Origin: Escherichia coli O157:H7
Lineage (GTDB): Bacteria; Pseudomonadota; Gammaproteobacteria; Enterobacterales; Enterobacteriaceae
Length of the DNA stretch: 64,000 nt
NCBI RefSeq assembly: GCF_013167455.1
Contig: NZ_CP038328.1
Strand: one strand, 5' to 3'
Part shown: positions 24,001 to 33,000 of the stretch, in pieces
Layout: each line of letters begins with the position of its first letter
How positions within the stretch are numbered: the first letter of the stretch is position 1
Position numbers: made by a program

Positions 24001-27000
24001 AAAGCGTACCGCCTGGAGAAGCGCAGAAAAAACAGATTAATCGCCAACACTACGCCACAAAGAATGAGCAATGCAATTATCGATTTAAACGTTAACCACT
24101 GCCCCTCTATCACAAAAGAATCACTGTTACGCAACGGGCTGATAGTAAGCAGGTTAACAACCGTTGAGATGCACACCGAAAGCAGCACATAGCGAGTCAG
24201 ACTTTTATATTTTACTTTTTTCGCTACTGAAATAGCGACCTGCTTGACATAACTGGTGCGGATCATCCGAAACAGCAGAAAGATAACCAACGGCCCAAGT
24301 AACGAAATCAGGAACAGCGCATATAACGAGGGTAGACGCTGGTATAGCCCCCAACTCATTGCACTCAACATGATTAACGACAGAAATCCTGCCACCAGAG
24401 GTTGCGTAAGAAATAATTCTATTTTGTGGTTCTGCTTTTTCTTAAACCACGAAAAATCGATATTCTTCGTGACGCATTTATAAGCCCAGTACGCCTTGAG
24501 ATCAAAAATAAAATTATACAGCACCAGGGCCAGAATCCCACTAACGACACCAATATCCTCTGATGGAAAAGTAAATCCTGCATTTTTCCAATAAAAGCCT
24601 ATCAGAATAAGTCCAATAGCATAAATGTATATCAGACTTCGTTTATCCTGAAAGCGAATAAAAGTTAAATAATCAGGAATCATTTGAATACCTTCGCATC
24701 ACTAAATGCTTTACGACAATGCATAACTCGTTGCTGATCCACGCCAGCGAAATCGTTGAACATATTCCCCAAATAGGGCTTATTACTTATTTCAAGGAAA
24801 GCTACCGAGGTTGGCATATTCAGAAATGTATCGAGAGATTCAGTCCATTTCACCGTATGAGTTAAGTGTAATGAGAGATTTTCTTTGATAATTGACGGAG
24901 CGACCTCGCTTTTTGCTGTTACGTTCATCAGAACCTGATGCTCTGGCGAAGCGATATCCAGTCCGGCAAGATAATCGCGCATTGCCTGAACGCCGTCTTC
25001 CATCAAACGCGTGTGCCAGGCACCGCTCACACCGAGTTTAACCGGTTCGTATCCAGCGGCCATCAGCAGCGTGGCAAATTCATTCAACGCAGCCTGCGTT
25101 CCCCCAATAACCTGCTGGCGCGGCGTGTTATCACAGCTAATATCCAGCGCAATGCCTGATTCCGTAATCATCGTCTGCAGTTGTTCGCGGTTGATGCCTT
25201 TAACCGCCAGCATTGCGCCTTTATTTCTCTGGCTTTCGTCATGCATCAGGCTGGCTCTGAAGTGAATCATGCCAAATAGCGTCTCAAGAGAAATAGCTCC
25301 AGCGGCGTAGAGCGCACTGTATTCACCAACGCTGTGTCCGCAGGAGCCCACAACCGTTAAATTCTCAAGACGCTCGCGGCACAGGGTATAGAGCGTTACA
25401 TTAATTGCGGTCACCGCCAGTTGTTGTACCGTCGTTTGAATAAGGCGATTCATCGGCCCTTTCTGACACAGGCGACGCAGGTTCAGTCCGGAAATATCGC
25501 TGGCACAATCCCAGATATGTTTTGTACTGGCGTTGAGATCCCAAAGATCGCTGCCCATACCAATAACCGGATTACCCTGACCGGCAAAAAGCAGTACTGT
25601 CGGTTGTGAAGCATTATTCATCATCTCTTTATCCTTATAGATAGTATTTAAAGCCCAAATAAAGGCCTAACGTGTCGCCAAAAAGCGCAAATTCGGAGTA
25701 CCGACTTCCCAGCGCGCTATAGCCACCGGCATAGGCTTCAAGCTGGTTACTTATAGCGCTGAGCGGCGTGGAATAATGCAGGCCCAGCAACGTGCTGCCA
25801 TCAACGAGATTCACCACCAGCGAAGGCTGCAGCGTCGACTCTCCCGCCAGCGGCAGACTGGCCCAGGCGTTCAGATAGTGCTTACCCTGCAGCATCCCCT
25901 GATTGGCGGTATTGCTGATTTCTGAAGCCATCAGGTATTTGTAAGAATCAAATGCCTGATCCAGTGGCGCATAGCCGGTTGTGGTATTGAGGAAGTCAAT
26001 TAACTCGCGCTGCTGACGCTGTTCAGCGCGCGAATAACCCTCGCTCTGAAAGTAATACTCAACGCCAAACACGCTGAAATTATCACTGGTGTACTGCCCA
26101 CCCAGCGCCAGCTCTACGCCGCTTTCATCTTTCGTTTCATAGAGCGAATCCGGAAACTGATATTCCTCGACCTGCGCCGTCTCACGGTGGGAAAGATGCC
26201 GCCATTGCTGGGAGCGGTGGTAGGCTGCGTCGACATTCAGCGTAAGCTGCGGGGTGTAGTGATAACTGTCAGACAGCGCGAGTGACGGCGATGGTCCGAG
26301 CCGCACATTGACTGTCGGCGTGTGCTCACCAAAGCGATGATCGCTGAAGCTCAGCAGATAGGCTTCGTCGCTGTTTCCCTGCTGATTAGCCGACCAGTTG
26401 CCAGACGTCACATAGCGTTTGTCGATGGTGGCTAACTTCGGTATGACACTCGCCGAAAACGCATAATCGCGTGTATCCACGCTCATTTTTGCGCCCCACG
26501 ATGACGCCTGATACGCCGATGTCATTTTGGGATCGTGCAAACGCGTCGACTGGAATCCGGTGTAATAATGCGTTTGCAAATCAGAAGGCGAACGCAAAAA
26601 GAACATTCCTGACGGCGCGGCAAATTTGCCTGCTTCAAATTGAACGCTGTCCGAGGCGCTATAGACCAGACTGAGGCGGTTAATTAACGCACGCGTGCGG
26701 CTATCATCCGTTTCGAATTTCCCTGCGGGTTTAAGCGCATATTCGTTTATTCCATACAGATTGAGCTTAAGGTCCAGCGTATTGTCGATTATCGAACAAC
26801 CGCTATTGATGCCAATCCCCGCCTCCTGATAACCGTTGTGACGGGTGTAGGGATTTTTGCCTGCAATCTGCCAGGCCGAAGCCTGTTTATTGACATAAGA
26901 CACCTGCTCGTAAAGCGTCACATCGCTATTTTGTGCCACCTCGTCACCTGACAGGCAATCCGCCTGTACCGTCAACGGCAGCGCAACACACAGCAACGAA

Positions 27001-30000: not shown

Positions 30001-33000
30001 GCTGTTGTTGACCGCCCGATAGTTGCCCAGGTTTACGATCGCCAAAACCGCTTAATCCAACACTATCGAGATAATGCAGCGTCCGTTCAGTGGCTTCTTT
30101 TTTACTGAACTGACCATTAAGCACCAGTGGGAAATAAACGTTATCGAAAACATTTAATACCGGCATAAGGTTAAAAAACTGAAAAATAAAACCCAAATGT
30201 TTTCCACGAATCACAGCCAACTGCTCTTCTGGCAGTTGGTTCAGTAATTTATTTAAAAATATCACCGTTCCGCTGGTCGGTTTATCAATACCCGAGAGAA
30301 TATTCAACAGAGTACTTTTACCACTGCCTGACGGCCCACACAGTGCGAGAAATTCGCCTTTATTGATATCAAGATTAATGCTTTTAAGCGCATCAACCTT
30401 TCCTGCCCCAGCGCCATAACACTTATAAATATTGCTAAGCGAAATAGCGGGCAACGATTTAATAGTAGATTGCATACGACTGTCGTTATCCTTCAAGGTA
30501 TTCAAGGTCAAAGTAGTGATAACCAAACTGTTTATCGGCAATGACCGTACGCATTTTTCCACCGGGCTGAATATGACGGGTTAAATAATCCATACTCAAC
30601 GCGGGCGTCAGACAACCGCTTTCACCGTAATGGGCCACCAGGTCGATAACGCCAGCAGCAGGCCGGGACGGCATTTGTTGCCGTTCGCTGAAGGCCATGA
30701 CATCAATATCCGTAGCATGCTGTGGCGCAGTGCCGGAATGATATTCCCCGCATTGCAGCCTGATGGCGCTCTCACGCTGGCTGAGAATAAAACAACCCAC
30801 TCGTTCAACAGATAAATTCACCTCATCAGCACGACGGGGAAATAAACGCTTAGGCGGTTTACCCACATCTTCTTCAGAGAATACCAGCACCGGAATTGCC
30901 CGATAGGCAGCACAAATCACCACGTTATCGAATACATCCCAGGCGAGATAATCCTGCGCCATACGCAGCGCCTGAACGAATGCCTGTTTTTCGCCGCGAA
31001 TCTTGCAAGTCGGTTCCGTTATCGAAAACTTCTTAAGTAAATTCTTGGGAAGCGTATCAATAGTGGCGATATGCAGCGCACTGGAAATTTTTTCAAACGA
31101 ACCGGATTCGCCCCAGGAATCGGCATAAATAAATGCCGTGCGCGATTTCATTAACTTCATGCGTTCTTTAGTCGGCATTTGTTGTAATGCAGAATCGGTC
31201 ACCTGCTCCATCGCCTCAAGGTAAGGCATATATTGTGGATTACGGATCCGTTCTGGTGCATAAATATCGTTCTCCACGCCAAAGCGCTTCAGTCCCCAGC
31301 CATTAGCACGGGTGCCGTATAATCCCCTTTCGTACATATGTGCTTCCCAGGCGTTGAGCCAGGTCGGCTGATAAAAATAAAAAATGTCGTCCGGTTCCGT
31401 AAGCGCCCAGGAAGACAGGTAGATACTCTTTTCCGTCATTTCGCGCGCCCCGCTTGCATATTTGTCATGACAACGCCAATAACTGAACCATCGACACCCA
31501 CACCAACCTTCAGCAAATGGCGTTTGCTATGGTTTGTCACGCTGCCGTCCGTAAGTACCAGCGAAGCCATGCTGTCGATAATGACGTCGTTGCCAACAGG
31601 TGCGATCAGTTGATGATGCGTCAACGAATGGTGGCCAATGATCAGATCGACAACACCAGATCCGGTTGCGGTATAGCCGATCTGCCCTTTATAGGCGAGA
31701 ACGGGGATCTGTCGCTCCCCTGCGAACATGGCGATGGCTTTGGCCTCCGCGTTATCGCTCACTGCCGAACCGTTGCCGTGTGGAAGAATGGCTGCAAGAT
31801 CATCCAGCGCAATTTCAGCCTGCTTCATCGCGGCCTGCATGACCTTGTGCACGTTAGTGCTAAGCCAGGAGGCATCGTTGCTGCGGCCCGCGCTGATTTG
31901 GGTGTAAGTCGTTTGCACCCTTACGCCCTCACTTTGTTGACGCGCCCGGCGGTGATGAGCGCTTTCCAGTAGGAGCGCGCTAAAACCTTCTGCGAACGCC
32001 ACACCTTTACTGTTTTCACCAAACGGCTGCACTTGTTCGCTGTCCAGCATCGATTGCGTTTCCAGGAACCAGATGTCCTGGGTTTTAATTTTCGAACAGT
32101 TCAGCACAATCGCGAGATCAATCCCGCCCTGCTCAATGCCCTGCGTCGCCAGATGCACCGCAGTCAGTGACGAGTTACTGGTGCAGTTCATGTTAGGCGG
32201 CAAATACTGCAAGCGATATTTGCGCGCAAGATGGCTTGAAATCGTGTCCTGCGACATCTTTGAGGCATGCAGATTTGTGATGGATTGCGTTAAGTTGATA
32301 TCTTCTACATCGTTGTAATTATAGAAAGATTTGTAATCCAGCCCGTCGATACGCGGCCCAATACCGGTCAGATAAACGCGAACGTTGCGCCCGGCCAGGC
32401 AATGCTTATCCAGCATTGCCTGTTCCAGGGCTTCGTCGATCAACTGAGACAGCAGGTCCAATGCGCTATCGTCCACCTGTTTCAACGTCGCCACTGACGG
32501 ATTACCCTTAAACCCGCATTTAATGGCTTCCTCGTTGGAGGTAAACCAGGGTGTACGCGCAACGCGTTTCCCCTGTTTCAGATTGTCAATTAACTGCGAA
32601 CAGTCTTCGGCATACGGCATCCACACGCTGTAACCCGAAATAATAGCGGCATTGTCCACAGTCTTATCCCTTAATGACGAACGCGTAGTAGTTGCCGCCT
32701 TCCGTTGCGCCAACAAGCAGGACATGGTTCAGCGCAAGTTTCATCGACTGGCGTACAAAATTCACACGCTCATCAAAGAATTCCACCGTATTTGGAATCG
32801 CAGGTACTGCCTGCTTCTTAATGCAGTCAGTAATCACGGCGAGGTTAAGCAAACCAGCGGCAGAGGCGACAAAACCAAAGCAAGCGTTATAGTTCACTAC
32901 CGGCACCGCCGGGTTTTGCGCGGCGAAGGTGTTGTAAATCGCGTCAATTTCGATACGAGAATGGTCATCGCTACCGTTGCTGGTACCACATACCAAATCA

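Follow-up and report, generated by a model that had tools for sequence, protein, structure and literature searches.

In Gram-negative bacteria, periplasmic transport of specialised lipids is known for few systems, with Lpt, Lol and Mla and their relatives serving the lipopolysaccharide (LPS), lipoprotein and phospholipid routes. Here we describe a putative export system of Escherichia coli O157:H7, encoded within a 64,000-nucleotide (nt) stretch of contig NZ_CP038328.1 (hereafter the window), which is identified as O-island 47 from RefSeq annotation of the region. Five genes on the minus strand (25635-30475) encode an ATP-binding cassette (ABC) ATPase, a tetratricopeptide repeat (TPR)-like protein, an FtsX-type permease, a LolA-like protein and a predicted outer-membrane barrel, and are enclosed by genes for ketosynthases (KS), an acyl carrier protein (ACP) and other biosynthetic enzymes. 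On balance, we favour the interpretation that these five genes, probably helped by the inner-membrane protein YcdU, provide dedicated trans-envelope export for what the surrounding cluster makes, which would be a hydrophobic product of the acyl or polyene type; the cluster itself is of the type-II fatty acid synthase/polyketide synthase-like kind.

The idea of an inner-membrane exporter acting with a LolA-fold protein and an outer-membrane partner on a specialised lipid has precedents. MacB-type ABC exporters of a polyketide-derived glycolipid or other amphiphiles are represented by the DevBCA-HgdD and MacAB-TolC systems. For aryl-polyene (APE) lipids, the LolA-like ApeL, the LolB-like ApeN and the exporter ApeM, a member of the resistance-nodulation-division (RND)/MMPL group, have been proposed to form the route to the outer membrane. 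Cofitness in several bacteria links a DUF1302 barrel, a LolB-like DUF1329 protein, a BNR protein and an RND exporter, for which export of an envelope component has been proposed; an alternative role in ester use has also been put forward. The cyl operon of group B Streptococcus (GBS) encodes a universally conserved aminomethyltransferase, CylF, together with the ATP-binding component CylA and the ABC permease CylB, and homologous operons have been described only in Firmicutes and Actinobacteria.

The ABC ATPase and its FtsX-type permease

The initial annotation of the window had described a LolD-like ATPase with Walker A/B and LSGGQ motifs alongside a LolC/E-like FtsX permease with a large periplasmic domain, and both descriptions are borne out. 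The Walker A (GPSGSGKS), signature (LSGGQ) and Walker B (VVIADE) motifs of the ATPase are all intact, and its best NCBIfam match is LolD (228.3 bits, E 8e-68), followed by YbbA, DarD, MacB, FtsE and DevA. The protein stays below every curated cut-off among its NCBIfam matches, including those of the LolD equivalogs (TIGR02211, 228.3 versus 307.75 bits; NF008639, 209.5 versus 360 bits) and of DevA (TIGR02982, 187.5 versus 295.8 bits). Matches in the Protein Data Bank (PDB) to MJ0796 (4e-58), LolD (3e-53), MacB (6e-49) and also YbbA all lie near E 1e-50, and by these similarities the ATPase, whose orthologues comprise 232-236 amino acids (aa), belongs to the LolD/MacB/FtsE/MJ0796 clade.

The permease carries an FtsX domain (PF02687, E 3.2e-17, residues 302-429) and a MacB_PCD domain (PF12704, E 1.5e-8, residues 44-268), the latter flanked by hydrophobic segments at residues 47-65 and 295-313, with a periplasmic domain of approximately 230 aa. 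The best NCBIfam family is lolCE, at scores under the Lol equivalog cut-offs (TIGR02212, 92.9 versus 362.45 bits; LolE, 68.7 versus 439; LolC, 33.4 versus 473), and in the PDB the Lol relatives LolE (3e-14), LolF (4e-13) and LolC (1e-7) rank ahead of FtsX and MacB (4e-5). Judged from these domains and matches, the permease is of the FtsX/MacB type, as in type VII ABC transporters. Only one permease gene is present, which would be compatible with a homodimer of the LolF kind (LolF match, E 4e-13). A Kyte-Doolittle scan identifies five hydrophobic segments, the canonical four together with a conserved extra one at the N-terminus (residues 5-23). We note that a related permease from Nitrosomonas starts after this extra segment, and that LolE aligns only from about residue 125.

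The pair thus falls in the Lol/MacB/FtsX class, closest to Lol, rather than among unrelated drug or peptide exporters. DevA is among the matches of the ATPase, in keeping with the DevBCA-HgdD and MacAB-TolC exporters, whereas the present system differs from these in lacking a DevB/MacA adaptor and a TolC-type duct and in having an unfused nucleotide-binding domain: no MacA/HlyD-type adaptor is found among the annotated or conserved cluster genes, no TolC-like duct among the cluster genes, and ATPase and permease are separate genes with a third gene (218 aa) between them. With LolCDE-LolA-LolB the system shares a type VII ABC extractor, a soluble carrier of the LolA superfamily and the lack of a membrane-fusion adaptor, and it differs in its single permease gene, the extra N-terminal segment and the scores below the cut-offs. 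By this comparison, the system is Lol-like in outline and not a member of LolCDE/LolA, MacAB-TolC or DevBCA.

The periplasmic and outer-membrane components

The 262-aa protein annotated as LolA-like passes a profile search, matching PF17131 (LolA_like, also TP_0789-like; E 8.4e-36) over model positions 2-184 of 184, and it also matches PDB entry 3BUU, 'LolA superfamily protein NE2245' (E 3e-34). PF17131 is the only Pfam family returned at E <= 10, without a match to canonical LolA (PF03548) or LolB (PF03550); NCBIfam gives no match, and no LolA or LolB chain in the PDB is found at E <= 1. In RefSeq, the protein is named 'outer membrane lipoprotein-sorting protein'. As read from the sequences of 24 orthologues, the signal peptides carry an Ala-X-Ala-type site and lack a conserved Cys; since such a signal is of the signal peptidase I (SPase-I) type, the protein is expected to be soluble in the periplasm, like LolA and unlike LolB.

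The outer-membrane candidate with a signal peptide, a protein of 462 aa, is predicted by a confident structure model to form a closed beta-barrel of approximately 18 strands with an OprD/AlgE-like fold. The model matches 18-strand channels and resembles OccD, AlgE and maltoporin, and we regard the protein as a predicted outer-membrane barrel of the OprD/AlgE fold. There is no Pfam match even at E <= 10 and no NCBIfam match, and an hhalign comparison of the barrel family with a DUF1302 protein gave no signal (probability 0.1%). The family is rare, and in each context examined its gene lies directly after the LolA_like gene and before FabD. Two Cys residues are nearly invariant, Cys23, located two residues after an Ala-X-Ala-type signal-peptide site, and Cys76, which suggests a disulfide that would pin the N-terminus to the barrel. 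Anchoring of the barrel as a lipoprotein via its N-terminal Cys was considered and rejected, as the position before this Cys is occupied by D, H, N, S, T, G or A, a variability that is at odds with a lipobox.

The 218-aa protein encoded between ATPase and permease adopts a TPR-like, all-helical fold in a confident structure model, and its orthologues, read from sequence, have an SPase-I-type signal peptide without a conserved Cys. No match was obtained in NCBIfam or Pfam, or with its family profile against PDB sequences. A periplasmic TPR protein next to an AlgE-like barrel recalls, by analogy, the outer-membrane exits of polymer secretion, namely AlgK-AlgE, PelB, BcsC and PgaA. Those systems, however, export synthase-made polysaccharides, whereas the TPR-like protein here is separate from the barrel, shows no evident sign of being a lipoprotein and is encoded between ABC subunits.

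With these components in place, the statement that the genes are arranged as in lipoprotein sorting does not hold: a single permease gene is found instead of lolC plus lolE, a LolB-like lipoprotein is missing, and a porin/AlgE-like barrel of 18 strands serves as the predicted outer-membrane partner. Compared with LolCDE-LolA-LolB, the carrier belongs to PF17131, the barrel and the TPR-like protein take the place of the LolB-like lipoprotein, and the genes form one operon with KS/ACP genes that encodes no recognisable lipoprotein substrate. No consistent lipobox is present in the exported proteins of the cluster, and no conserved cluster protein resembles a lipoprotein substrate. Because the scores lie below the Lol thresholds and both a lipobox and a MacA-type adaptor are lacking, we interpret the system as a Lol-like paralogue for the cluster product rather than as part of lipoprotein traffic or a MacAB-TolC exporter.

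Gene order, conservation and selection

The genes form a single, tightly packed array on the minus strand that runs from 38490 to 23697 in the order AcpS-FabG-FabZ-ACP-GcvT-like-KS/KS-KS-317 aa-ABC-218 aa-FtsX-LolA_like-barrel-FabD-YcdU (Table 1). In the export half, neighbouring genes either share 4-17 nt or lie 0-10 nt apart: the ATPase gene ends 17 nt inside the next gene, and overlaps of 4 nt connect the LolA-like gene with the barrel gene and FabD with YcdU, the final gene. Scans for promoters and terminators at both ends of the operon gave nothing informative.

A scan with the barrel profile over one genome per species (100,044 species) identified 21 loci, distributed over Enterobacter, Kosakonia, Mixta, Klebsiella oxytoca, Leclercia, Serratia, Rahnella, Izhakiella and others, including 1 in Acinetobacter; the cluster is also carried by a Neisseria sp. 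genome. Every locus keeps the 13-gene order FabZ-ACP-GcvT-KSKS-KS-317-ABC-218-FtsX-LolA_like-barrel-FabD-YcdU, such that the embedding of the export genes among KS/ACP genes, as initially annotated, is invariant across genera. Identity to the E. coli proteins reaches 72-84% for the permease and 70-81% for the ATPase, which are among the best-conserved proteins of the cluster; the corresponding ranges are 63-78% (LolA-like protein) and 45-64% (barrel). YcdU follows FabD in all orthologous loci (22/22) and constitutes the 3' boundary of the cluster, since nothing downstream of it is conserved across genera.

With the LolA-like protein as query, an initial search yielded close orthologues only, and a second one, with distant members and the 3BUU sequence, reached a sister clade and a Nitrosomonas group. 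In the sister clade, which includes Serratia fonticola and Paraburkholderia sacchari as well as several metagenome contigs, barrel identity drops to about 25%; the layout is kept, with a distant YcdU homologue after FabD. In addition, sister-clade loci have an extra gene of the short-chain dehydrogenase/reductase (SDR)/ketoreductase (KR) type inside the export block, between the permease and LolA-like genes (L028, 9225-9977; L029, 9151-9990; L004, 8209-8967). Pseudomonas alcaligenes, Providencia and Erwinia appear in the list of LolA-like homologues only.

Among 5426 complete E. coli genomes, 389 carry the export module. When O157:H7 is compared with a strain of another E. coli lineage that is 98% identical, the export genes show dN/dS values of 0.02-0.18, with 0.02 for the ATPase and 0.04 for the permease, and contain no stops or disruptions. 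The synteny, conservation and purifying selection together argue that the transport genes are an integral, selected part of the cluster family. One of the 389 E. coli copies is plasmid-borne, as is an Enterobacter bugandensis orthologue, which would agree with the cluster having spread horizontally.

The biosynthetic genes and their possible product

The cluster carries a full de novo set of starter and extender functions, comprising FabD, ACP, KS, KR and dehydratase (DH), and contains no enoyl reductase. At the family level, this enzyme set resembles both the cyl (granadaene) operon and aryl-polyene clusters, which we take as no more than a lead towards a polyene-type product. A weak ApeI-like Pfam match is seen for the dehydratases of orthologous and sister-clade clusters (L002, L005, L028, L029). 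With the APE clusters the locus shares a type-II fatty acid synthase-like gene set without enoyl reductase and a LolA-fold protein of its own, but differs in having an ABC/FtsX energiser instead of an RND exporter, in lacking a DUF3261 LolB-like protein and in the presence of the barrel and the TPR-like protein; moreover, it has no aryl-starter genes, but a GcvT-family enzyme.

The likeness to GBS cyl is one of domain families only and extends over FabD, FabG, ACP, FabZ, KS and the GcvT-family enzyme as well as the ABC exporter, with counterparts in the cluster, set by family and not by comparison with Cyl sequences, for cylD, cylG, acpC, cylZ, cylF and cylH/I. No equivalent of the acyltransferase CylE, the glycosyltransferase CylJ or CylX was recognised in the cluster. 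The LolA-like protein, the TPR-like protein and the barrel have no counterpart in cyl, and CylA/B may belong to another ABC class than the present transporter.

Two further proteins of the cluster could connect synthesis with transport. YcdU, which has no NCBIfam match, is a candidate for release, anchoring or flipping of the product. The 317-aa protein has no match in Pfam or NCBIfam, and its family profile returned nothing from PDB sequences, yet it is conserved in all clusters with invariant ERxGC and G-x-SGC motifs. An hhalign comparison of its family with the KS proteins of the cluster gave a probability of 1.4%, restricted to the KS active-site helix and with the catalytic Cys replaced, and the protein may be a degenerate member of the thiolase fold.

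A related module in Nitrosomonas

The second homologue search also revealed a module in Nitrosomonas eutropha (CP000450; locus L030, 654-9657), in which genes for an ABC ATPase, two FtsX/MacB_PCD permeases and a DUF1302 barrel accompany a LolA_like gene of the NE2245/3BUU group, adjoining a gene of the N-acyltransferase family Acetyltransf_5 (PF13444). One of the two Nitrosomonas permeases aligns with the whole E. coli permease at 32% identity (E 2e-58), far closer than LolE; such modules hold the nearest sequence relatives of the permease beyond the cluster family and, with 3BUU, the nearest solved structure to the LolA-like protein. The module differs from that of E. coli in its two permease genes and its DUF1302 barrel, and in having neither a TPR-like gene nor KS/ACP genes. 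From these sequence relationships, ABC/FtsX and LolA_like proteins appear to form a subfamily separate from LolCDE, found repeatedly together with an outer-membrane barrel and close to genes related to lipids, and the Nitrosomonas module hints at a wider lipid-export architecture. The DUF1302/DUF1329/BNR/RND set is likewise composed of an inner-membrane exporter, a periplasmic protein of the LolA/B fold and a barrel, but uses other families at every position and is not located within a biosynthetic cluster.

A proposed export route and its alternatives

From the families, folds, compartment signals, operon structure, synteny and selection described above, we infer a route in which the cargo, the order of hand-over, the contacts and the destination would be as follows. 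The product would be built in the cytoplasm on the cluster's own ACP and then released or anchored at the inner membrane, with YcdU and/or the 317-aa protein as candidates for this step. A homodimeric type VII ABC complex of two ATPase and two permease subunits would extract it from the outer face of the inner membrane through ATP-driven movement of the periplasmic domain of the permease, as in LolCDE and MacB. The soluble LolA-superfamily protein would shield the lipid in the periplasm, the TPR-like protein may scaffold the hand-over, as its fold and the position of its gene between those of ATPase and permease suggest, and the 18-strand barrel would either insert the product into the outer membrane or pass it through. 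The logic would be that of Lol, namely an ABC extractor, a LolA-fold carrier and an outer-membrane acceptor, with an exit that by analogy resembles AlgK/AlgE more than LolB.

The initial annotation had already read the locus as product export rather than lipoprotein traffic. This remains the best reading and is partly supported, in that it fits the synteny, the failed equivalog cut-offs, the absence of a lipobox and the purifying selection, while the anatomy it described was incomplete: the four parts named were found, but the 218-aa TPR-like gene was overlooked, as was YcdU just outside the interval. That interval (24680-30475) covers the export genes but also takes in the biosynthetic FabD gene (24680-25624).

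Several observations weigh against a dedicated export route. The 317-aa protein and YcdU, the candidates for release and anchoring, gave no family match, which for YcdU refers to NCBIfam; the extra N-terminal hydrophobic segment of the permease is not seen in LolC/E or MacB; and no sequence similarity between the barrel and DUF1302 was detected, so that the link to Nitrosomonas rests on the ABC, FtsX and LolA_like components only. The literature searched contains no paper on the genes of this route, and the reviews of O-island 47 discuss GrvA only. Finally, the clustering of the genes does not by itself discriminate between a product placed in the outer membrane and one that is secreted or removed for self-protection.

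The most probable alternative, although we consider it unlikely, is an efflux or self-protection pump that clears a membrane-damaging product, such as a granadaene-like cytolytic polyene, into the medium via the barrel instead of incorporating it in the outer membrane. Exporters such as MacB, DarD (darobactin export), bacteriocin exporters and DevA lie near the ATPase, the barrel resembles the open channels OccD, AlgE and maltoporin, and biosynthetic clusters often carry an exporter of their own, as cyl does with CylA/B. However, such a pump would have to operate in a cluster without MacA/HlyD-type adaptor or TolC-like duct, and with a permease nearer to LolE/LolF than to MacB, and a soluble LolA-fold carrier is expected for a cargo that must be shielded from water rather than for a freely secreted molecule.

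A very unlikely possibility is that the ABC-FtsX pair transports nothing and, like FtsEX, switches on a periplasmic or outer-membrane partner, be it the TPR-like protein, the LolA-like protein or the barrel. FtsE and FtsX are indeed among the matches, and a periplasmic protein is encoded between ATPase and permease, but the NCBIfam score of the permease is far weaker for FtsX than for Lol (33 versus 93 bits), no hydrolase or other enzyme domain was found in the periplasmic partners, and the LolA fold is a lipid-carrier fold. We assign a lower probability still to uptake or retrograde traffic, by which a hydrophobic precursor or host lipid would be brought to the biosynthetic enzymes; OprD/Occ-type barrels are uptake channels, and DUF1302 and DUF1329 matter for growth of Pseudomonas putida on fatty esters, yet no importer-type substrate-binding protein is present and the complete de novo starter and extender set argues against a need for import. 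To our knowledge, there is no type VII ABC importer in the MacB/Lol/FtsX class, which also counts against uptake. Least probable of all is a second Lol system that sorts a lipoprotein of the island, for although the nearest named families are LolD, LolC/E and the LolA superfamily, as the RefSeq name of the carrier reflects, the scores are far under the Lol equivalog cut-offs (228 versus 308 and 93 versus 362 bits), the exported proteins have no consistent lipobox, there is no LolB-like protein, and the module travels with KS, ACP and FabD in each genome examined.

If the genes do form a dedicated export route for the cluster product, it would be a compact one, encoded beside the enzymes that make its cargo, and its five small genes in a tractable species would provide a convenient model; it would also point to an undescribed surface lipid in a major food-borne pathogen. 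We further raise, tentatively and as a possibility that we would not yet expect to be borne out, that this is an undescribed lipid-transport machine, assembled from the type VII ABC extractor, the TPR-like subunit, the PF17131 carrier and a new family of 18-strand barrels, that places a polyene-type lipid from a cyl-like pathway without enoyl reductase on the surface of O157:H7 and other Enterobacterales. Its ABC/FtsX/LolA_like core, which the Nitrosomonas modules share, would then represent a general route to the outer membrane for lipids other than LPS and lipoproteins.

Genomic setting

O-island 47 is described in reviews as a 31.7-kb island found in nearly all O157:H7 strains, of which only the regulator GrvA is discussed, and it is also present in O55:H7 and O145:H28. 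The RefSeq annotation was read from an 18-kb stretch that is 100% identical in O157:H7-type chromosomes, for example that of FRIK1989.

Table 1. Genes of the biosynthetic and export array, with window coordinates and the basis of each assignment
Feature	Coordinates	Strand	Basis
AcpS	38122-38490	-	NCBIfam/RefSeq
FabG-type reductase	37347-38108	-	NCBIfam/RefSeq
FabZ/FabA-like dehydratase	36795-37343	-	NCBIfam/RefSeq
ACP	36492-36773	-	NCBIfam/RefSeq
GcvT-family aminomethyltransferase	35296-36456	-	NCBIfam/RefSeq
KS-KS fusion, 852 aa	32664-35222	-	NCBIfam/RefSeq
Third KS-like protein	31436-32659	-	NCBIfam/RefSeq
Conserved 317-aa protein, no family	30486-31439	-	
ABC ATPase, 235 aa	29768-30475	-	NCBIfam, PDB, motifs
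Periplasmic TPR-like protein, 218 aa	29128-29784	-	Predicted all-helical fold, SPase-I-type signal peptide
FtsX/MacB-type permease, 436 aa	27817-29127	-	Pfam, NCBIfam, PDB
LolA-superfamily protein, 262 aa	27020-27808	-	PF17131, PDB 3BUU
Predicted outer-membrane barrel, 462 aa	25635-27023	-	Structure model
FabD-type malonyl-CoA:ACP transacylase	24680-25624	-	TIGR00128 178.6 bits, E 2e-52; RefSeq 'ACP S-malonyltransferase'
YcdU, polytopic inner-membrane protein, 328 aa	23697-24683	-	~8 hydrophobic segments

In K-12-type and most other E. coli, only ycdU and the 3' third of the FabD-like gene are left, cut by an IS3 element beside dgcT. The remnant corresponds to window positions 23697-25023 and to 5388-6727 of locus L006, and the K-12 FabD fragment is the pseudogene ymdE (b1028), so that the K-12 orphans ymdE and ycdU are the stump of the cluster. 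A mastitis genomics study treats ymdE-ycdU as uncharacterised candidate fitness genes, without the context of the cluster (PMC4951805), and their identity as a cluster stump bears on the mastitis association proposed there.

Directly upstream of the array and on the same strand, a two-partner secretion pair (38506-44026) encodes a 1270-aa FhaB-like filamentous haemagglutinin and a ShlB/FhaC-type transporter. The stop of the transporter gene is only 15 nt from acpS with no terminator-like site between them, and co-transcription of the pair with the biosynthetic operon is therefore possible.

Between the cluster and the chromosome lies an integrase-bearing mobile element (10000-23565), which carries a tyrosine recombinase (22128-23330), a protein with the primase domain of TOTE conflict systems, an inovirus Gp2-type protein and a YfjI-family protein, as well as copies of IS66, IS30 and IS1. 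At 23491-23565, 75 nt match tRNA-Ser/RtT sequences of other strains, and since ARAGORN finds no intact tRNA in the window, this segment is probably an attachment-site remnant. Adjoining the integrase, a 605-aa hypothetical protein is encoded at 20124-21941 in a region of very low G+C (0.32), and further stretches of low G+C are located at 4-6 kb, 44-46 kb and 52-58 kb.

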